Source: Escherichia phage CLB_P2
Sequence record: OL770107
Direction: 5' to 3' (one strand)
Length of the DNA stretch: 64,000 bases
The number at the start of each line of letters is the position of its first letter. The stretch's first letter is position 1. The notes below the pieces were generated by a model, which searched no databases, was not told the origin of the DNA, and was given only the letters and a program-made list of their open reading frames with translations. This document shows, in pieces, positions 3,437-19,090 of the stretch. Both the position numbers and the translations under genes were made by a program.

Positions 3437-4444
3437 TTAGAATTCGAAGATAATGTTAATTTCTTCGGTTTGGTCCATGGAACGAATAACCGGAGGACGG
3501 TTTTCCATATAAATCATTTCACCGGAGTGGCGGGAGAGATCTATAACGTCATAGTACTCTTTTTCGGCTTTAATGATCGGGTCTGATGGATGGGCTTTAG
3601 CTTCCAATGGGTTGGAAATTATTGAAAGTTGTCTAAATCCTTTATTCCCCGGCAAACTAAATTCAGGGAAATAAACTGAATCTAAGAATGCTTTAAAACG
3701 AATAGTATTGCCTTTAATACGATAAATCAAGCCATAATCGTCTTGTTGCCAAGTGAGGTTATTCTCATATCCCCAACGTTCAGGGTCTTCAGCAATTTCT
3801 TCCGGCCATGGAACTACAATATATTCATTGGTACAACGGTTGATACTTACATCAGGTGGAATCTCATAAAGATATTCCCAAAGATAGCCATCACCGGTGT
3901 CTACCATACCTTCTGTATCGCCTTGTCCTGCCGGAGCTTTAACTGAAGGGACGTTTGCGGTCCATTTACCACCAAGTTTAATACACTCGGTTTTATTATC
4001 AAGAGATAAAATAGAGCATGCTCCGGATTCAGGAACATCCACACAACGATAAACCATCCAACCTGCACCAACATCAGTACGGTTTTGCGGCTGGCTATTC
4101 GCCACTACAATTTCACCAATCTGGAATGTGAAAGGATTAGGATAAGAGGTATCGCCCCAGTCTTTGCGAGGAACAACACAATCCAACATACTCTTATAAA
4201 CCTTAACACAACCCATCATGTTTGTCCAGACGTCCTCTACGCCCTCAGAATCATCTACAGGATACGGTGGAGCAAAGCCTGGGTCGTTTTCGTTAGGAGC
4301 CCATGGTTGGGCTCTCCCGAAAGATACATACATCGTGTTCTGGTCTTCACCATCACCGATTGTTCTGTAAAAGTTGTACATCTTTTCCGTTCTAAATTTA
4401 GAAGTAACAATAGAACGATATATTACTGTTGAATTAATCATCAA
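3437..4444 (-). CDS. 8: baseplate wedge subunit gp8
   Basis: 335 aa (T4 gp8 334 aa); synteny between gp7 and gp9. Confidence 0.75.
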   Translation of the reverse strand: MMINSTVIYRSIVTSKFRTEKMYNFYRTIGDGEDQNTMYVSFGRAQPWAPNENDPGFAPPYPVDDSEGVEDVWTNMMGCVKVYKSMLDCVVPRKDWGDTSYPNPFTFQIGEIVVANSQPQNRTDVGAGWMVYRCVDVPESGACSILSLDNKTECIKLGGKWTANVPSVKAPAGQGDTEGMVDTGDGYLWEYLYEIPPDVSINRCTNEYIVVPWPEEIAEDPERWGYENNLTWQQDDYGLIYRIKGNTIRFKAFLDSVYFPEFSLPGNKGFRQLSIISNPLEAKAHPSDPIIKAEKEYYDVIDLSRHSGEMIYMENRPPVIRSMDQTEEINIIFEF

Positions 4445-7400
4445 TTTTTACCTGAGTTGGGTCTTGCGGGTCTCTAGGGTTTCCTATATCAGCTTTAAGT
4501 CTGTCATCAACTAAAGCACGCCATTTTGAAAATGTTACTGCACTTTGGTCAAATAAAGGACTATGCTTTTTAATACGTTCATGAGGTAATTGGCCTTGGA
4601 ATACAGAGAAATCATTTTCTGCGTCATAATCAGCAGGAATATCAAACGGTTCACCTGCTTTAGGTCCAACGTTATAAACCGGGAGCCCTGTTCTAGGGTC
4701 TCGTTCTATATTACCATCAAATCCGATTACAGCAACTCTATCATACCATTCGGATGGAAGACCTGAGTCCCACTTATAGTTCTTAAGTATATTAATAATG
4801 GTTTCCGTGTGCTTTAATGTCAAACCGACGTTAACAAACATAGAAAGCAACGTAATCCCTATAAAACCAAATCCTACAGGGTGGACAAATCTCAATACAT
4901 CATTACGATATCGAGAAGTAGGGAGGTTGGATTTAATAGTCATAACATAATAAGAACGGTTGCGGTTAATATAATCGATATTGTTACTTAACAATTCTTT
5001 ACCGCGTACACCCTGCACTATCATACCTTTAAATGATGTGCGTTCAGATTTAATCTCTTGACCCACTATAAAACGACCTAAAAGATTATGAATGGTTAAA
5101 CGCCATTGCAATTTACCATCTTTATAATTTCGTTCTATATAAGTAACATTACTTCTTCCTGTAGGGGTATAAATTGTTTGGCCGACAATATCTTCACTGA
5201 TGTTATCAGATTCTACAATGATATCATATTCAATAGAGTTCTTAGACTCTATATCAATTTCGACATCTTCGTTATAAAGCAATTTAAACAGGAATTTATA
5301 TGAAGCTTCGGTACCTTTTGTAGACCAGAAATCCGATTGACGAGCCTGGAAGAAACGAACCACTTCGTCGCGCTTTTCTTTAGACAGGTAGATATTACGT
5401 TTATAGATTTCGGACCACAAATATTCCCACGAGTCTTCTTCACGAGGATATTGGTTACGAATAAGATTTAATAGGTTATTATAATGAGTGCCAGAGCCAT
5501 CACTAATAAACTGAAGATAATATTCGCAGAATTTTTCAAAGTTAGAATCTTGAAGCAAATAACTATCAGGGACCATTTTAACCAATAAAGGACGCAAATC
5601 AGGGTCTTGTTCACCTGTTTCTTCTTTAGGGGTCCATGGAATTTCATGCTCTTGGTTTTGGAGCTCTGCGGTAAACATTATTTCTTTAGGCTTCCAAATT
5701 ATTCTAACTTCATCTCGAACTCGATAATCGAACTCGAAATATCCTATCAATTCACCTGATGATTTGTGAATCATTATACCTGAGGAATATTTTTTAAATC
5801 CACTGAATTCAATGTTAGGGCATGTTACAGTACAAAAGCCTTTATCCCAAATTTCGCGGATAATACGCTCTGGAGAAGAACCACTGTTTAAATCAATAAT
5901 TTTCTGATATAATGCATCGTTATAAACTACCATCGCATGATTACTTGTGGTAATCCAAGAGCGGGTTCCATCGCGTCTAGACCAACTAAAGAATGGTTCG
6001 GCATAATAAGCCATTCGGCCAGGTTTGAATTCTTTAAAATCTGATTTACTGTTAGCTCTAAAACTCATCATCAGATAATGTTTATCATGAATCCACTGCT
6101 CATCCTTAACGTATTTTACGGCAGAAGCCACGATAGGGTATTCTAAAGGCAATTCGTTGTCAACTTCCACCTCGTATTTGAAGTTACTTGAGCTAAAGAA
6201 TATTTCTTCACCGTCTGTAGACATGCTGGTATAACCATGCTCAATACGACGTCTCTCTTCTTCAGTATTACCAAATACTCTGGTCCATGTATCAGTTTCA
6301 GCATCCAACCAATAAACGCCTTTAGATTCAGAATCAACCACGTTTTCTTCTTTAGTAGGGTCCATTCTTTCTTCTTTAACTTCACCCGTAATTAAGGCAA
6401 AGGTGTTTCCTTGAATAGAGTCCAATTTATAACAAACTGCTTTAGGGTTGCCGGTTATGGTCGAATATCCACTTTCAAATATTTTTTCACCATAAGTAGG
6501 AGAACCTGGGTCGGTATCAATAGGCGCATCGGTGGTTTTTGCTTTATAAACTCTGTCTCTAGCAGCCACGTAAATAAAATCGTCCGAAGCACACATTGCC
6601 TCTGCTATAGTAGAAATAGCTAATGGTAAACGGGCATAAGAACCAAAAATTTCAATTTCAAAATCAAGGTCGATATCACTACCAATTTTAGCAAATGTCA
6701 CGTCTTGTGAGCTAAAACGTACATCATCAGCAGACCATCTGATATCACTAGATTTACGTCCGTAAAATATACGGTCATAACCTAAAACATAAGTTGTGGT
6801 GTCCGTTTGGTAATGGGCCGTACGTGAAACCGGATTACCTACTCGGTCATTAAACAAACGAATATAGTGCCAGTTTTGAGCTTTGTCATTAGATACCTTA
6901 GCAGTGTTCTGAAATCTTTCTAAAAGATAAAGTACACCACCAAGCTCCATTAAAATAGAACGATTAGGGTCCTTACATACGGCTTGAATACTTCCTTGAA
7001 TCTCATGAAAGCGGTCAGCCTTTAATACATAATTAGAAATTGAAGAAAGGTGAGAATACGATGGAGTCCAAGTAAAATCCTCTGTCATCATAGAAGCCAT
7101 AATGGCATCACTATTAAAATCCACGTAATTCTGGTTATTTTTGGTAAATTTTTCTTCAATGAATTTATCGGATAAAGTGAATTCTCGCATATGCTCGAAG
7201 GTATATGCGTTGGTAGAAAATGTCTCGAATTCTTCTGTATAAACCCATTCGGATTGTTCAAATCCTTGAGCAGCTACAGCGACACGCATTTTATAAAACG
7301 AATTAGGAGAAATAAATCTTTCTTCGAACCAGTTATTGTTCGGGGTGTAACCTAAATTTCTCCAAAATAACTTATCATCGGGTATAGATTCACCCGCATC

Positions 7401-7526
7401 CTTGGTTTGGGCCAGTTCTACGAAATAATAGAAATTGGCGCCTACGTCATCCCAAAGAATACTTACATGGTTAGCCGAGAGTTTATCAATTCTCAAACTA
7501 GTAACGGAAGGCGCTTGCACAGACAT
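4434..7526 (-). CDS. 7: baseplate wedge initiator gp7
   Basis: 1030 aa (T4 gp7 about 1032 aa); synteny between gp6 and gp8. Confidence 0.8.
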   Translation of the reverse strand: MSVQAPSVTSLRIDKLSANHVSILWDDVGANFYYFVELAQTKDAGESIPDDKLFWRNLGYTPNNNWFEERFISPNSFYKMRVAVAAQGFEQSEWVYTEEFETFSTNAYTFEHMREFTLSDKFIEEKFTKNNQNYVDFNSDAIMASMMTEDFTWTPSYSHLSSISNYVLKADRFHEIQGSIQAVCKDPNRSILMELGGVLYLLERFQNTAKVSNDKAQNWHYIRLFNDRVGNPVSRTAHYQTDTTTYVLGYDRIFYGRKSSDIRWSADDVRFSSQDVTFAKIGSDIDLDFEIEIFGSYARLPLAISTIAEAMCASDDFIYVAARDRVYKAKTTDAPIDTDPGSPTYGEKIFESGYSTITGNPKAVCYKLDSIQGNTFALITGEVKEERMDPTKEENVVDSESKGVYWLDAETDTWTRVFGNTEEERRRIEHGYTSMSTDGEEIFFSSSNFKYEVEVDNELPLEYPIVASAVKYVKDEQWIHDKHYLMMSFRANSKSDFKEFKPGRMAYYAEPFFSWSRRDGTRSWITTSNHAMVVYNDALYQKIIDLNSGSSPERIIREIWDKGFCTVTCPNIEFSGFKKYSSGIMIHKSSGELIGYFEFDYRVRDEVRIIWKPKEIMFTAELQNQEHEIPWTPKEETGEQDPDLRPLLVKMVPDSYLLQDSNFEKFCEYYLQFISDGSGTHYNNLLNLIRNQYPREEDSWEYLWSEIYKRNIYLSKEKRDEVVRFFQARQSDFWSTKGTEASYKFLFKLLYNEDVEIDIESKNSIEYDIIVESDNISEDIVGQTIYTPTGRSNVTYIERNYKDGKLQWRLTIHNLLGRFIVGQEIKSERTSFKGMIVQGVRGKELLSNNIDYINRNRSYYVMTIKSNLPTSRYRNDVLRFVHPVGFGFIGITLLSMFVNVGLTLKHTETIINILKNYKWDSGLPSEWYDRVAVIGFDGNIERDPRTGLPVYNVGPKAGEPFDIPADYDAENDFSVFQGQLPHERIKKHSPLFDQSAVTFSKWRALVDDRLKADIGNPRDPQDPTQVKIDD

Positions 7527-7554: not shown

Positions 7555-9513
7555 TTATATTGTAATAGGTTCTAATTCAATGGTCGTGTATTGAGGGCGG
7601 AGGTCATCTTCAAATACGATTAATGAACCATCTTTTGTAAAGATGTTATCTTGGTCAGGTCCCGCATAAAGTTCTATAGATTGAACTTCAAAACGGTCGG
7701 ACGTTAAACCAATAGCCGCGATGTCCCAGAAAATGAAATCTGAATAATAATCGATTTCACCTATAACGTAATAAACGGATTGGTCTGCAGGAGCAGGCAT
7801 TTTATCAAAGTCATTTCCTGTATATGGTTTAATATATTGGTTTTCAATTACATCTCCTGGACGGAAAGGCCCAATAACCATTTTACCATCACCACGTTCG
7901 TCTTTATCTGTAGCGGCAATTCGTACATTATATGCCGGGTGGTCTTCAGAAACGTTAGTAGGGACAAACTCAAATTCACTAGAAACCACAGAACGGTTAG
8001 TGTATTGATTATAGTATTTAATACCTGACTCAGGAGTTTTGAAAAAGTTCAATACCTCACGAACCATTGTTATGGTAGCAGAGGAGCCTAAAATACTATG
8101 GTCTGCATTATCAATATAAGTCAGCATTTTTGACTTAGCGAATCCATGGTTAAAAATTTCTACTTCATTAATATAATAACGGTCTATCTGAGAAAGAATT
8201 TGAGCCGATAGCCACTGTTCAGATTCCTGTAATTTATTCAAGGCATATGATACCTTAATTTTATGCTTTAAGAACAAATAATCAGGAGAAATAACAGAAG
8301 CGGTAATAGGGGCCAAGTTAAATTCTTTTAGATAGTCTTGGATATCTTCACGTTGGACCGCGGTCAAATATAGCCCTGATTTAGGTTTAATGGTGACAAA
8401 AGCATAACCGGGTTTATTTGGGTCTGTAAAGGTTTGTACTGCTTGCACTATAGAACCAAAACGTTCAGATACGAATGTATCATAGTCGGTTCCTGTAACA
8501 GCACGCATCTGGGCTTCACGCTTAACTACCGCCAATTCACGGATTCGTTCAATATCTTCAGGGTCACCACCACCATCAGCACCAACATAATCCGGGTCGT
8601 CATTATAGTTTTCAGTGATTTTTTCTACGGTTATATAAGCTAGTGAGTCTGCATAACTGAAGTCAACCGCGCCGTTAGCAACTTCACCATCTGTACGAAG
8701 ATATTCGATGACGATAGTAGAATCTTTAACAGGTTTTAGACCGCCGATATAATTAGCTTCCAATACTCCACCTGCAACAGATTTTTCGGCTTCACCCTCA
8801 CCAAAGAAGAATTCTGTATTACCATCTACGGTTTCACGCATATAATAAATTGTTGAAGTACTACCAGCGTGGACCATTGATTTATTAGTCCAGTTAATCC
8901 ATTCTGCACCATCAACATAAAGTCTAACTTCTTGTCTATCGATATCAGGGTCACGAATAAGAATAGGAGTTTTAGGGTCATATTTAAGTTCAGTACGAAT
9001 AATACGTCCCTGGGCCAAAGAAACAATAGGCCAATACTGATTATTAACGTCTCGCACTGCGATAACGTTATCAGTTGTCACAAAAGAATATGGGTCTGCT
9101 GATGTATCACGTGCATAAGCCAAGAATTTGGTACCTCTAGGGATACGAATATTCTTTTCATTAAGGGCTTGCGTGCATGTGAGCATTACCGTAGTTTTAG
9201 CTGCAGACTTAGAACTAGGGAGATATCCATTGTCTTGTGCAGCTTGGACAACCGAAGAACGAAGGTTTGCTGTTCCTATAAAAGATTCGTATAAAGCTGT
9301 GTTAGCAAATTGCTGCATATAAAGGGTATTATAAGCAAGCATATCAATAAGGATATTCATTCGAGAACCAACGAAATCATAATCCTTAAATTCGTCCTGG
9401 CTGGAAAGCCAGTCTATAATATTCTTTTTAATTTCTTCAAACGTAGCTCCCACAAATACTTTTGGGATAGCGTTAACGGTTCTTGTTAATTGGTAATTCG
9501 TAGGAGTAGCCAT
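7555..9513 (-). CDS. 6: baseplate wedge subunit gp6
   Basis: 652 aa (T4 gp6 about 660 aa); synteny; SD GAGGAG upstream of gp7 in the short intergenic region. Confidence 0.8.
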   Translation of the reverse strand: MATPTNYQLTRTVNAIPKVFVGATFEEIKKNIIDWLSSQDEFKDYDFVGSRMNILIDMLAYNTLYMQQFANTALYESFIGTANLRSSVVQAAQDNGYLPSSKSAAKTTVMLTCTQALNEKNIRIPRGTKFLAYARDTSADPYSFVTTDNVIAVRDVNNQYWPIVSLAQGRIIRTELKYDPKTPILIRDPDIDRQEVRLYVDGAEWINWTNKSMVHAGSTSTIYYMRETVDGNTEFFFGEGEAEKSVAGGVLEANYIGGLKPVKDSTIVIEYLRTDGEVANGAVDFSYADSLAYITVEKITENYNDDPDYVGADGGGDPEDIERIRELAVVKREAQMRAVTGTDYDTFVSERFGSIVQAVQTFTDPNKPGYAFVTIKPKSGLYLTAVQREDIQDYLKEFNLAPITASVISPDYLFLKHKIKVSYALNKLQESEQWLSAQILSQIDRYYINEVEIFNHGFAKSKMLTYIDNADHSILGSSATITMVREVLNFFKTPESGIKYYNQYTNRSVVSSEFEFVPTNVSEDHPAYNVRIAATDKDERGDGKMVIGPFRPGDVIENQYIKPYTGNDFDKMPAPADQSVYYVIGEIDYYSDFIFWDIAAIGLTSDRFEVQSIELYAGPDQDNIFTKDGSLIVFEDDLRPQYTTIELEPITI

Positions 9514-10190
9514 TATTCTGAATCCTGTTTAAATTGTTTTATCATTTTATCATAAGCCGTATTTGGAAATCCGTTTTCAATGGCTAATCGGGTCATTTTT
9601 CTCCAACCTGGCTTATCATTTTCTTTCCATAATTTGAATAAAATATCGTATGATTGCCATATGGGGTGTTTTCTATTATTAAGTTTACATAGGTCAATAA
9701 CAGATTGCGGTCTGGGTCTTTTATATAAAGGATGTTCTTCTCCTCTAACAAAAACCCTCGGTTTAGGAGGTGACTTAGGTTTTCTCCTTTTGGCCATAGC
9801 TTTTTCAAAATTTTCAATATATTCTTTACTTCGTGGTGGCTTTGACCTACCCTTCATTTTGTCTGATATTTGCTTCTTTGAAGATTCCTTATGCTTTCTT
9901 CCTCGCATACTTCCTTTGCCACCCAAATCTATATTATAATATCTATCATCATAAATTATAGATTCGTCTACTAAAAATTCTTCGTAGTCGTAAGCCTCAT
10001 CTTCAGTATCAAAAAATTTTATTATTTTTGTCTCAAACAAATCCTTTCCATATTTTTTATAAGCTTTTTTGATAAGCTCCCCTGTACCGTAATATCCATC
10101 AAACATATCATCAGTAGAATGTTTGCCTATATACTTTTTACCATTTTCTAGGTTTGTAGTTACATATACAAAATTAAATTCTTTGTTCAT
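9513..10190 (-). CDS. GIY-YIG homing endonuclease (seg-like, free-standing)
   Basis: 225 aa; N-terminal [19 protein letters not shown] ... [10 protein letters not shown] fits the GIY-YIG catalytic module; basic C-terminal half typical of I-TevI/Seg DNA-binding regions; start and stop overlap gp5.4 stop (ATGA) and gp6 start (TAATG). Confidence 0.7.
9513..10190 (-). mobile_element. homing endonuclease gene insertion between genes 5.4 and 6
   Basis: Endonuclease ORF precisely fills the gap between two conserved baseplate genes with overlapping start/stop codons. Confidence 0.55.
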
Positions 10191-10480
10191 TTTATGAACA
10201 CCTTTCCTGAAGCTTGTGCGACTGTATCACCACATGAAATCGGGTCTGCCATCTGGACAGCCTTTTTGCCTGTAACATATACCTTTGATGTTCTAGGTTG
10301 GGTTACCCCACCGTGGGTTTCATATGGTTTTTTAATTTCTGTATGAGGAGTTATTGGGTCCCCATCGACTAATACAGGAATGCCACCTGTAAATACTTTA
10401 CCCTGGGTGGCATTTATTACTGTAGGAGGCCATGCTTCATGACCTGCGGTTACGCATTGGTTATAACTTAAGCCCGACAT
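10187..10480 (-). CDS. 5.4: PAAR-repeat spike tip protein gp5.4
   Basis: 97 aa; [19 protein letters not shown] ... near-identical to T4 gp5.4 as recalled. Confidence 0.85.
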
Positions 10481-11001
10481 TATGGCCTCGCATATACATA
10501 TTCTCTGAGTTGATTAGCCCATTTGCTCCAATTACCCACTATAACCTTGGTATAAACCTTAGTAAGGGTTTTTCTTACTGGTGCTGGAGGAGGGTCGGTT
10601 TCGCTACCGGCTCTAGAATTACTTCCTCCTGAGCTCCCTGTATCACCTCCTGATGACTCTTCCTGAAAGTCATAGATTAATGTGACAGTATAGGAAAAAG
10701 TCTTCTGAAGATTACCAGGGGCTTTCCAGAGGTATAATTGAGTGCTCTTGTCCTCTGGTAAATCTTTCCATGAACCTGCTGTTTTAAATTCATCACCTAA
10801 TCGATATTTTAACGCATCTTCAGAGAATCCAAATACCGATTCATAGGTTCCGTATAAACGAGCCCCATCGACAATAATGCCTTCTGTTGGCTCATATTCT
10901 GTTATATTTATTTCAACTAATGTTTCGTTTGTTTCTAATTGAGCGGTAAACGTAACATCGATTGAGGCTCCTTCCATGGAGTCTCCTAAATCAGTGCTCA
11001 T
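10480..11001 (-). CDS. 5.1: gp5.1-like hypothetical protein
   Basis: ORF following gp5; start chosen at first Met downstream of the gp5 stop (MSTDLG); Gly/Ser-rich linker; no SD seen, so the start is uncertain. Confidence 0.45.
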
Positions 11002-11011
11002 AGGTAAAATA

Positions 11012-12754
11012 TTAGCCAATGTCAATCCTCGAACCATCAATAGTATATTGACCGGATGCAATAGAACTCATAGTCGACATAGTTTCAGACCAATTACCAG
11101 CAACAGTCATATCAACGTTTCCATTTACCGACCATTTAACGTTTCCATTTACTGTATAATCATGGTTACCTTCAACTAAGGTTTTTGCATCACCTTTAAC
11201 AGTTATATCAGCATTGCCTTCAACAATAACCGTAACATTTCCTTTAACAATAAGGGTTCCGTCGCCTTCTACCGTTTTGGTTTCGTTACCACGAATATGG
11301 ATGCTTTCAGAACCGTCAGTTTGACGTCGAACATTTGCCATATTATAATAGGTTTCATCACCACCTATATTGACTTTATTATTACCGCCAACATAAGTAT
11401 TAGAATCGCCTTGGGTCATATAATATCCGTCGGCTACGGTCTTAGAAGTTTTACGTCCATCAGGAGCAACTTCTTCATAACTACCTGTAGGGTGAATTAA
11501 TCGGTAACGTTCTTGCCCTGGTGTGTTATCGAATTCTTGGATATGCCCGCCTTCAGTTTGCATGGTTTGGACATATGGATATTCGCCTTTATAACTGGAA
11601 TCCGGCTCTTTAAAAAGAATCCTTGTATCTTCTGGAGTCCATGGGTCGGCTGGGTCTGAATTTGTAGGGGCTGCAAAGGTTTGAATCATCCTATAAGAAC
11701 GGCCATTAAATTCTCTTTCTTTAGGGGCCATAATACCGTATGATTCCATATTACCGGTAAGGATAATCATTGATACCCTTGAGGCACGTCCCTTAGTTTG
11801 GTTAAACCATACTGAATTACGAGCTTCCTCAAATGCCTTTTTATAATCGCCTATTAACATAGCACTGAGCATACCACGGAATTTAGCAAGTCCACCTAAA
11901 CCCATTTGGAAAGCCATGTTTTCAAGGGCCATTTGTCTTGAACGGTTTTCTTTATTGTAAACAGGACCTACAACACTATGCCTACCTATATCGTTTTGAA
12001 CTTTTTTAAGGTCTTCCTGGAATAACTTAGAAGCCTCGTCCATTGATATTGCACCTGGATTACCTTTAACTTCTCGACCTATTTGATTAGATAATATTTT
12101 GTTTATCTGGGTCATATCTCTAATAGGTTGTGGTGTAATAAGGTGACCTATACCAATAGTAGGATATCCTTCGGTGTCCCAATATACCTTCAGTCTAAGC
12201 CCTTCATCACGATGAAGCATGTTTTCTATTGTGAAATTAGGATTATCATCAGGCTTAACTTGGCTTAAATCCAAACCGTCAGGATTAATACCTACATCAG
12301 TGTTTGCATCTTGTATTACGTTAGAAGTGGCATCATATCCAACTTCACCACCTCGGTTTAGTGCAGCGGCATCATTACCTAAATAAAGCGGATACTGCCC
12401 TGTAGGGTCACTAAAACCTTCGTTTGGATTTGCCTTTTGTTTTGATGCTGAACCGTATGTACCGAGGACGAGCCCGTTTAATTTCCACTTATCAAGAAAA
12501 TGGCCATAAACTTGTGTACCAGGGACCATACCAGTCATGGCGGTTTGGATACCGGAAACAGAGGCAGAAGATGTAGGCATTAATACCGACATCCATGGTA
12601 AATCTTCCGTACGAAGGCCTTTTACAGGGCCCTGTACTTTTTCATACGGGTGCATACCCCATACGCGTACGCGTACACGACCTTGTTGGAGTGGGTCCAT
12701 TCGGTCTTCAACTACACCGACGAACCAACTTACGTTATCAGACATGTTAATCAT
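11012..12754 (-). CDS. 5: baseplate hub subunit and tail lysozyme gp5
   Basis: 580 aa (T4 gp5 575 aa); lysozyme-domain motif YWDTEGYPTIGIGHLI; C-terminal beta-helix repeats (VxGxxxxxV pattern). Confidence 0.9.
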   Translation of the reverse strand: MINMSDNVSWFVGVVEDRMDPLQQGRVRVRVWGMHPYEKVQGPVKGLRTEDLPWMSVLMPTSSASVSGIQTAMTGMVPGTQVYGHFLDKWKLNGLVLGTYGSASKQKANPNEGFSDPTGQYPLYLGNDAAALNRGGEVGYDATSNVIQDANTDVGINPDGLDLSQVKPDDNPNFTIENMLHRDEGLRLKVYWDTEGYPTIGIGHLITPQPIRDMTQINKILSNQIGREVKGNPGAISMDEASKLFQEDLKKVQNDIGRHSVVGPVYNKENRSRQMALENMAFQMGLGGLAKFRGMLSAMLIGDYKKAFEEARNSVWFNQTKGRASRVSMIILTGNMESYGIMAPKEREFNGRSYRMIQTFAAPTNSDPADPWTPEDTRILFKEPDSSYKGEYPYVQTMQTEGGHIQEFDNTPGQERYRLIHPTGSYEEVAPDGRKTSKTVADGYYMTQGDSNTYVGGNNKVNIGGDETYYNMANVRRQTDGSESIHIRGNETKTVEGDGTLIVKGNVTVIVEGNADITVKGDAKTLVEGNHDYTVNGNVKWSVNGNVDMTVAGNWSETMSTMSSIASGQYTIDGSRIDIG

Positions 12755-13356
12755 TAGAGGGCTTTCTCCATTTCACGAATAAGGGCAGAAATAAAAGACT
12801 CAATATCATTAGGGTCAATAATCTTTATTTCGCGCTTATATTCATTTTTACGAATGGCATCCTCGTAAATATCTACTGCGGCCAAAGGGCCCTCATATTG
12901 AGGATAACGTTTTTCTGTATCGCCTTTATCATACCAAGTATACGGATTTTCTGGTGTGTTGACAAGATTCCAGAATTTCTCACCTTTTTCGTTTACATGG
13001 TAAAGGACCTGGTTTCCGCCGTCGGTAGAATATCTTTGGATTGCCGCTTGATATGCTGCTTCTTGCCCAGTAATCCATCCATAATAAGGGTCATATATAT
13101 TGTTGCACATAAGTAGAACCCAATATAATTGGACATTGCCATAAAGAAGATGGGCCAATTCTTCTGGACGAGGGGCTCCATTGATATAATAAGTCTTTAG
13201 TGTATAATTTTTAGCCACTTTATCAAAATATTCTTTATAATTTCTAAATATATCAGTCATCGGCACGCTCAATACATCGGCATTTGTTAATGAGCCCGAA
13301 TCCGGTTTGACTGTTTTTGATTCGTAATCGATAGGATCGAAAAATGAGAAGAGCAT
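12754..13356 (-). CDS. 53: baseplate wedge subunit gp53
   Basis: 200 aa (T4 gp53 about 196 aa); divergent from gp4; late promoter upstream. Confidence 0.75.
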   Translation of the reverse strand: MLFSFFDPIDYESKTVKPDSGSLTNADVLSVPMTDIFRNYKEYFDKVAKNYTLKTYYINGAPRPEELAHLLYGNVQLYWVLLMCNNIYDPYYGWITGQEAAYQAAIQRYSTDGGNQVLYHVNEKGEKFWNLVNTPENPYTWYDKGDTEKRYPQYEGPLAAVDIYEDAIRKNEYKREIKIIDPNDIESFISALIREMEKAL

Positions 13357-13383: not shown

Positions 13384-13391
13384 TATTTATA
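13384..13391 (-). promoter_or_regulatory. late promoter for gene 53 (TATAAATA)
   Basis: Reverse complement of tatttata lies 28 nt upstream of the gp53 ATG. Confidence 0.55.
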
Positions 13392-14676: not shown

Positions 14677-14758
14677 TCTATTATCCCAGCCAGTTATTGA
14701 ATGGAATAGACCTAGGACCATTATACACTGTCTGGGACTTAAGCAATATAGGAATCCT

Positions 14759-18857: not shown

Positions 18858-18931
18858 GGCCCTGTAGCTGGACGGTCAAGCGAGCGACTCATAATCGCTG
18901 GATGGTGGTTCGATTCCACCCAGGGCCACCA
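18858..18931 (+). tRNA. tRNA with CAT anticodon (Met, or Ile if lysidine-modified)
   Basis: 74 nt cloverleaf: 7-bp acceptor stem ggccctg/cagggcc, anticodon loop cTCATAa, T-arm ggtgg-ttcgatt-ccacc, encoded CCA. Confidence 0.75.
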
Positions 18932-18935
18932 ATTT

Positions 18936-19010
18936 GGATGTGTAGCTCAGCGGTAGAGCAGTTGACTGTTAATCAATTGGTCCATGGTTCGAATCCATGC
19001 ATGTCCGCCA
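18936..19010 (+). tRNA. tRNA-Asn (GTT)
   Basis: 75 nt: acceptor stem with two G-U pairs, anticodon loop cTGTTaa, T-arm catgg-ttcgaat-ccatg, encoded CCA. Confidence 0.7.
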
Positions 19011-19014
19011 AATA

Positions 19015-19090
19015 CGAGGCATAGCTCAGAAGGAAGAGCAAGGACCTTCTAAGTCCTGGGTCGTAGGTTCGATCCCTACTGTCTCGACCA
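19015..19090 (+). tRNA. tRNA-Arg (TCT)
   Basis: 76 nt: acceptor cgaggca/tgtctcg (one G-U), anticodon stem aggac/gtcct with loop cTTCTaa, T-arm gtagg-ttcgatc-cctac, CCA. Confidence 0.75.

Follow-up and report, generated by a model that had tools for sequence, protein, structure and literature searches.

Phage T4 carries free-standing GIY-YIG endonuclease genes of the seg type, among them segA, whose product is a proven site-specific endonuclease leaving 2-nucleotide (nt) 3' overhangs (PMC2988022). A 2010 review places T4 segC at 5.1/5.3 only (PMC2988022). Here, we analysed a gene of this kind, called seg below, in a 64,000-nt stretch of Escherichia phage CLB_P2 (CLBP2; sequence record OL770107), which is referred to as the window. 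The gene lies between genes 5.4 and 6 of the late baseplate operon. T4 segC and the JS10 gene 'mobE/segC' are likewise free-standing GIY-YIG genes in the same operon, one gene further upstream, and both are likewise promoterless and overlap the open reading frame (ORF) that precedes them. We consider it likely that seg encodes a SegA-like GIY-YIG homing endonuclease and is a free-standing gene specialised to the 5.4/6 junction of T4-like phages, and comparison of its copies provides strong evidence for a recent transfer between genera.

A GIY-YIG endonuclease gene between genes 5.4 and 6

An initial annotation of the window had proposed an endonuclease ORF between gp5.4 and gp6, and we found it at exactly the coordinates given there, on the minus strand, which that annotation had left out. 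The gene and its two neighbours are as follows.

9513-10190, minus strand: seg, seg-like free-standing homing endonuclease ORF, 225 amino acids; ATG at 10190-10188, TAA at 9515-9513
10187-10480, minus strand: gp5.4, PAAR spike-tip protein, 97 amino acids, upstream neighbour (PF05488, 1.7e-9; PHROG 281, 7e-38)
7555-9513, minus strand: gp6, baseplate wedge, 652 amino acids, downstream neighbour (five gp6 Pfam domains, 1e-37 to 6e-48)

Reading of the reverse complement also bore out the two overlaps described in that annotation. The seg ATG is shared with the TGA stop of gp5.4 in ATGA (reverse complement of 10187-10190), and the seg TAA is shared with the gp6 ATG in TAATG (reverse complement of 9511-9515). 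Genes 5.4 and 6 are both intact around seg, and the gp6 ORF matches all five gp6 Pfam domains. In T4, genes 5.4 and 6 adjoin with an 8-nt spacer between them, as the initial annotation had stated. No group I intron was found in the 64-kilobase (kb) window with Rfam, and no other Rfam family was found near seg; the gene is free-standing and not intron-borne. A profile of the seg family detected no second seg-like ORF in the window. The window is 100% identical to record OZ035781.1 (Dhakavirus CLBP2), which carries no annotation. An apparent length difference of 741 nt between the window and its own record was due to an extra short BLAST piece (about 75 bits) and is not an insertion or deletion.

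Domains and catalytic residues of the seg protein

The seg ORF is not a chance reading frame, since its product matches PHROG 314 'homing endonuclease' (4.8e-43) and PADLOC HEase (1.8e-29), neither of which has a curated cutoff, as well as TIGR01453 'group I intron endonuclease' (8.8e-12; 45.5 bits, under the cutoff of 56.05) and, in Pfam, PF19835 SegE_GIY-YIG (1.1e-5; 26.1 bits, above the cutoff of 25) and PF01541 GIY-YIG (2e-4; 22.0 bits, just under the cutoff of 22.6). Three regions were distinguished in the protein.

9912-10190, minus strand: GIY-YIG catalytic domain, residues 1-93, with conserved Tyr9, Asn13, Tyr20, Gly22, His24, Tyr33, Gly35, Glu70 and Asn86
9708-9911, minus strand: basic Lys/Arg/Pro-rich linker, residues 94-161, with a sub-threshold NUMOD3-like motif at about residues 97-118
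9519-9707, minus strand: C-terminal four-helix domain, residues 162-224, presumed to bind DNA (helix-turn-helix-like) and common to T4 SegA

In an alignment of 23 homologues, Tyr9, Asn13, Tyr20, Gly22, Tyr33, Gly35, Gly48, Phe52 and Asn86 are invariant, and Glu70 is near-invariant (at least 90% of homologues). The motifs FVY9V and KY20IG22 are likewise invariant, the 'GIY' box reading VYV, a tolerated variant. A profile built from this alignment matched the catalytic domain of I-TevI in the Protein Data Bank (PDB; 1LN0, E = 1.2e-4), and this family profile was required to reach I-TevI, since a single-sequence phmmer search against PDB sequences returned one meaningless match (E = 2.3). The profile alignment places Tyr9/Tyr20/Gly22/Glu70/Asn86 opposite I-TevI Tyr6/Tyr17/Gly19/Glu75/Asn90, Glu70 and Asn86 being the counterparts of the metal-binding Glu75 and Asn90. 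The seg protein thus has the GIY-YIG alpha/beta catalytic fold, and it shares with I-TevI the Tyr/Tyr/Glu/Asn constellation and apparently the design of catalytic domain, linker and presumed DNA-binding region. It differs from I-TevI, which is encoded within the T4 td intron, in its TIGR01453 score under the cutoff and in that no zinc finger was detected in it.

The initial annotation had held that absence of the catalytic residues would speak against an endonuclease. Tyr, Tyr, Glu and Asn are present, but in the profile alignment the essential I-TevI Arg27 is aligned with His24, which belongs to a conserved GKHST motif, and the helix bearing Arg27 is shortened. A GKHST-type motif occurs in T4 SegA as well. 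Since SegA cuts DNA with the same motif, the missing arginine may be a trait of the subfamily rather than a sign of decay. On every testable feature except the Arg27 position, the seg protein belongs to the GIY-YIG/Seg branch.

A comparison with SegA and I-TevI had been suggested in the initial annotation. In addition to the profile match to I-TevI, it identified T4 SegA as the best named relative, with 33% identity over the full length (E = 3e-31), including the C-terminal domain, and with the same three-part architecture. At the place of the sub-threshold NUMOD3 match in the seg linker (E = 0.042, under the cutoff), SegA has a NUMOD3 match with E = 1.2e-6. SegA differs in its site, which is uvsX/beta-gt and not 5.4/6, and presumably in its target; the two are paralogues, not orthologues. 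The JS10 'mobE/segC' protein is 34% identical to the seg protein in the catalytic domain alone. It and T4 SegC differ from seg in their junction and in having NUMOD3 repeats (5e-17) without the SegA-type terminal domain. T4 SegC has only 140 amino acids, and CLBP2 has no gene at the SegC site.

Sporadic presence and transfer between genera

The seg ORF was present in only CLBP2 and VR26 (Gaprivervirus) among 104 phage records matching the CLBP2 flanks, and again in only these two among 413 records matching the VR26 flanks. A scan of IMG/VR with the seg protein re-found VR26 only. An 8-nt spacer stands in place of seg in dhabil, dhaeg, JS98, VR5, TH15, VR7 and T4. In their flanks, dhabil and dhaeg share 98.8-98.9% identity with CLBP2. 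Their junction reads ...ATAAAATAGGAATTAAAATGG...; relative to it, the insertion swaps 8 nt for 673 nt and thus adds 665 nt net. The initial annotation had called for inspection of this junction in relatives lacking the insert, where dhabil, dhaeg, T4 and others indeed have a clean 8-nt spacer. It had also held that conservation of the ORF at this site in all T4-like phages would speak against a mobile gene; most of them have only the 8-nt spacer.

In a three-way alignment with dhabil, CLBP2 and VR26 were 100% identical over 795 nt (9422-10216), while identity in the surrounding genes was 0.63-0.90 per 100-nt interval and 76-85% when averaged per gene. The insert has a GC content of 31.5%, below that of every other 673-nt stretch of the window. 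Moreover, CLBP2 differs from dhabil by nine substitutions in the last 55 nt of gene 5.4 (10241-10199), all of which are the VR26 allele. Beyond this converted tract, only two aligned positions of the flanking genes separate CLBP2 from dhabil in the interval 9000-10700. The converted tract has two parts.

10232-10241, minus strand: outer co-conversion tract in CLBP2, where markers 10241, 10235 and 10232 are not the dhabil/JS10 allele
10199-10211, minus strand: recoded 3' end of gene 5.4, GCTTCAGGAAAGGTG, travelling with seg, six substitutions relative to dhabil

The GCTTCAGGAAAGGTG allele is absent from 12/12 insert-free Dhakavirus and Gaprivervirus junctions read and is present in every copy of the cassette, namely in VR26, in the public contigs L032 and L034 and, with one change, in contig L019. 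It is therefore part of the mobile unit and not a trait of either genus.

The exact seg protein was found on 11 public contigs, each time between the PAAR gene and gp6. Two of them, L032 and L034, represent Gaprivervirus-like backgrounds distinct from VR26 that carry the identical 677-nt gene. L019 (a Logan contig from SRR32022501, 1122 nt) carries a 96%-identical copy of seg in a vB_EcoM_005-like background, a third Dhakavirus sublineage. This copy has a 1-nt deletion (corresponding to window position 9767) that shifts the frame after residue ~140, the C-terminal domain being readable in another frame, which reflects either decay or an assembly error. The breakpoints of L019, L032 and L034 in gene 5.4 all differ and lie within its last ~70 nt. 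The interpretation of seg as a mobile gene of the seg type, put forward at the outset, is thus supported by the Seg/GIY-YIG family matches, by its sporadic presence and by identical copies in diverged genomes. Because an identical copy resides in a phage of another genus, these comparisons are strong evidence that the gene was transferred between genera recently; such jumping is ordinary for T4-like phages.

Occupation of the junction in no fewer than four lineages (those of Dhakavirus, Gaprivervirus and Winklervirus, and metagenomic lineages) would also be expected if seg were ancestral at 5.4/6 in T4-like phages and had been repeatedly lost instead of gained. This history is extremely improbable given that the gene shows 100% nucleotide identity between genera while its flanks reach no more than 76-85%, and given that seg has the lowest GC content of the window. 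Furthermore, the native 8-nt spacer is well conserved from T4 to Dhakavirus, and repeated precise deletion would not regenerate it.

Orthologues at the 5.4/6 junction

Orthologues with 57-66% identity, always located between the PAAR gene and gp6, were found in the Serratia phages X20 and LC53 (Winklervirus) and on five contigs, L014 (a 167-kb ENA contig) and L015-L018 (Logan contigs). Since it is missing from their relatives CHI14, CBH8, Kc304, Vettismorki and others, the gene is sporadic in the genus of X20 and LC53 too. The X20 and LC53 genes resemble seg in their junction, in their length (224 amino acids; 64-66% identity) and in an embedded gp6 ribosome-binding site. They differ in the position of their ATG, 8 nt ahead of the 5.4 stop, and in a gp5.4 C-terminus reading ..KVFLNG. 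Pairwise ratios of non-synonymous to synonymous substitution (dN/dS) between orthologues were 0.07-0.19. In X20/L018, the sole pair unsaturated at synonymous sites, dN was 0.126 and dS 1.02, giving a ratio of 0.12. Of the three protein regions, the linker had the highest dN/dS. These ratios indicate that the seg protein is under purifying selection.

Relatives at ~30-36% identity sit elsewhere (uvsX/beta-gt in T4, near uvsY in IME08), which is the normal pattern for seg paralogues. By these sequence comparisons, a seg family is dedicated to the 5.4/6 junction in at least four T4-like lineages. The identical gene of VR26 is annotated 'segA' in GenBank, and that of X20 'putative endonuclease segE'. 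The name segA is misleading for VR26, as T4 segA lies between beta-gt and uvsX and the identity is only 33%; a seg lineage specific to the 5.4/6 junction is a better description. Our literature searches retrieved no paper on the VR26 or CLBP2 gene, nor on an endonuclease at the 5.4/6 junction.

In X20, both ends of the insert bear TAATGGCTAA, once at the seg start (L005 2990-3010) and once at the gp6 start (L005 3665-3685), and CHI14 has the counterpart of this site at L020 1195-1215. It looks as if the X20 seg ORF had borrowed the original 5.4-stop/gp6-start sequence, which was later duplicated, and the repeat may have been left behind by the original insertion.

Candidate homing site

The sequence directly downstream of the insert stands out by its conservation.

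9422-9513, minus strand: first 92 nt of gene 6, candidate recognition region, identical in CLBP2, VR26 and dhabil

Across 12 insert-free phages of Dhakavirus and Gaprivervirus, gene 6 is invariant from -1 to +80, synonymous sites included, whereas other 30-nt bins have 4-14 variable sites each. With 93 nt, the block at the start of gene 6 also forms the longest exact match in ~21 kb of dhabil against VR26, the next ones being 68 and 53 nt long. This block is the natural candidate for the homing recognition sequence, or else could be a product of repeated conversion. An RNA structure behind the invariant 5' end of gene 6 was rejected on folding (z-scores of -1.95 and -0.45); the alignment fold of six lineages reached -2.7 kcal/mol with essentially no covariation, and an apparent pairing of Pro/Gly codons between T4 and CLBP2 is probably incidental to coding.

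Converted markers end at most 52 nt upstream of the junction. On the other side, the first position that distinguishes the genera is 9421, 93 nt into gene 6, and it carries the resident allele in every background. With such short limits of conversion, the break and the gap would span roughly -52 to +92 of the gp6 ATG, and the cut would thus lie near the insertion point. Characterised T4 seg enzymes cut hundreds of base pairs (bp) from their own gene and give long co-conversion tracts (PMC2988022), and the cut sites of SegF and SegG are distant, unlike the position suggested for seg. The short tracts are more reminiscent of a near cut, as in intron-encoded enzymes such as I-TevI.

Alternatively, seg could be an inactive relic or passenger, spread by ordinary homologous recombination through its conserved flanks without any endonuclease break. 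Such plain recombination would find support in the 92 identical nt of gene 6 across both genera, but upstream homology is ~80% and the breakpoints fall within 30-70 nt, and with homology this poor, repeated chance acquisition of exactly the seg cassette is unlikely. The arginine missing opposite I-TevI Arg27 and the frameshifted L019 copy are compatible with a relic; against one, dN/dS is far under 1 across lineages with saturated synonymous sites, the other catalytic residues are invariant and the His-containing motif is also that of the DNA-cutting T4 SegA. We therefore regard an inactive passenger as quite unlikely and retain an active homing endonuclease as the preferred explanation.

Further into gene 6, at window positions 8480-8980, identity between CLBP2 and dhabil drops from ~100% to 88-96% over ~500 nt, and CLBP2 does not come closer to VR26 in this stretch. 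It has the appearance of an independent recombination patch without connection to the seg insertion.

Expression signals and translational wiring

Seg is embedded in the gene order 53-5-5.1-5.4-seg-6-7, whose remaining members and relevant signals are listed below.

12754-13356, minus strand: gp53
11012-12754, minus strand: gp5
10480-10977, minus strand: gp5.1
4434-7526, minus strand: gp7
13384-13391, minus strand: late-promoter consensus TATAAATA before gene 53, nearest candidate promoter for the 53-5-5.1-5.4-seg-6-7 transcript
9523-9526, minus strand: AGGA Shine-Dalgarno for gp6 inside the last seg codons, ..CAATTTAAACAGGATTCAGAATA directly followed by ATG, 9 nt before the gp6 ATG

On the minus strand, no exact TATAAATA late-promoter consensus was found from 13384 to gene 6, nor in or just before seg. 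Because the sole exact upstream consensus precedes gene 53, seg looks like a promoterless cassette. T4 segC, segF and segG are likewise promoterless cassettes (PMC2988022). A scan for sigma-70 promoters and terminators yielded fewer sites than in shuffled sequence and was uninformative.

The substitutions linked to the cassette create a Shine-Dalgarno-like GGAAAGGTG that ends 8 nt before the seg ATG. At the same time, they turn the gp5.4 C-terminus ..ASSKVFIK into ..ASGKVFIK and replace the TAG stop codon of gp5.4 with TGA. At the other end of the gene, the seg-embedded AGGA replaces the AGGA of the native 8-nt spacer TAGGAATTAAAATG, and CAATTTAAA(C/G)AGGA precedes the gp6 ATG by 9-11 nt in 6/6 insert-carrying lineages examined. 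With the gp6 ribosome-binding site inside seg, an imprecise deletion of the insert would strip an essential gene of its ribosome-binding site. By analogy, the embedded site would favour retention of the insert, following the same logic as the promoters embedded in segG and segA, for which it is described in a review (PMC2988022). It is possible, and we propose it only tentatively, that repeated homing in co-infections of Dhakavirus with Gaprivervirus, with a cut within ~100 bp of the insertion point, preserves identity between the two genera over the first ~90 nt of gene 6, the element acting as a standing inter-genus gene-conversion bridge at the baseplate operon that locks itself in by carrying the gp6 ribosome-binding site.

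We also observed a 17-nt palindrome, TGTTCATAAAATGAACA, at 10183-10199 of the minus strand, which would form a 7-bp A/U-rich hairpin with the start codon of seg in its 3' arm. It does not occur in the X20-type orthologues. Hairpins sequestering the start codons (7 bp at the seg AUG, a 9-bp pairing at the gp6 AUG) were not significant (z-scores of +0.10 and -0.32) and were rejected.

The wiring of seg into the translation of an essential operon, through the gp6 ribosome-binding site that it carries, raises the question whether it is a domesticated or dual-function nuclease kept for the benefit of the phage and not a purely selfish homing element. We consider this unlikely, since the great majority of close relatives do well without seg, a frameshifted copy exists (L019) and selfish spread predicts the identical copies found in diverged backgrounds. 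Purifying selection across the orthologues is in keeping with domestication. The benefits that could be envisaged are the exclusion of markers of competitor phages, regulation of the late baseplate operon by DNA binding, and a role in amplification or anti-defence. For a regulator, I-TevI offers a model, as it represses its own promoter; an operator-like copy of the junction sequence was neither sought nor found. Regulatory and host-beneficial roles of T4 endonucleases have been described in a review (PMC2988022) and in a 2026 paper (PMC13096335), and SegB has recently been reported to help amplification or anti-defence. Domestication or a dual function is compatible with homing, and the two are not mutually exclusive.

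Model of seg homing

We favour homing by an active SegA-like enzyme, which could proceed as follows. Seg would be transcribed late on the 53-5-5.1-5.4-6-7 message, without a promoter of its own, and translated at a low level through coupling to the gp5.4 stop (ATGA), aided by the cassette-borne Shine-Dalgarno in the recoded last codons of gene 5.4. During co-infection with an insert-free relative, the C-terminal helical domain and the linker would bind the uninterrupted 5.4/6 junction, and the GIY-YIG domain would make a double-strand break near it. T4-type recombination would then repair the break with the insert-carrying genome as template, copying the ~700-nt cassette and a few tens of nt of flank. 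The insert-carrying allele would escape cutting because the insertion splits the target site, and the host phage would tolerate the insert because the cassette restores the gp6 ribosome-binding site in its own last codons.

Several points weigh against this model. The general GIY-YIG Pfam model and TIGR01453 both score under their cutoffs, and the essential Arg27 of I-TevI aligns with His24. Cleavage, target and homing of the seg protein, like the cut position and the timing and level of its expression, are predictions drawn from sequence. The conversion tracts are far shorter than those of the characterised T4 seg enzymes, which would mean either a near cut or another route of transfer. Finally, the donor phage is not identifiable from sequence alone.

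What is new here is the direct evidence of a recent inter-genus transfer, the seg lineage specific to 5.4/6, the embedded ribosome-binding sites and a predicted cut unusually near the insertion point. With one cassette in several diverged backgrounds and very short tracts that differ among them, the locus would provide an unusually clean natural record of inter-genus homing. If the cut is as near as the tracts suggest, seg would encode a compact free-standing GIY-YIG nuclease whose defined target lies within a conserved structural gene, and could be of use in phage engineering. The current understanding of homing endonucleases is unchanged by these findings.

Insertions at neighbouring junctions

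The 5.1/5.4 junction is a second insertion hot spot next to 5.4/6. A different GIY-YIG/NUMOD3 gene of 204 amino acids occupies it in JS10 (L003 2416-3030) and on contigs L015 (2098-2712) and L016 (1756-2370); on the latter two, both the 5.1/5.4 and the 5.4/6 junctions are occupied. CUA3 probably also carries the JS10-type gene, since its locus has the identical length; there is no annotation there. T4 has segC at 5.1/5.3, and in CLBP2 the gp5.1 stop and the gp5.4 start abut at 10480.

Another homing endonuclease gene, of 651 nt, lies between gp2 and gp3 in dhabil (L007 5256-5906), where CLBP2 has only an 82-nt spacer (window 14677-14758). The endonuclease insertions of CLBP2 and dhabil are therefore reciprocal, at 5.4/6 in the former and at gp2/gp3 in the latter; as the two phages share 98.8% identity across the first 25 kb of the window, they form a natural pair for homing crosses. 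Further along the window, Rfam identified three adjacent transfer RNA (tRNA) genes at 18858-19087 on the plus strand, which correspond to the dhabil tRNA cluster (Arg, Asn, Met).

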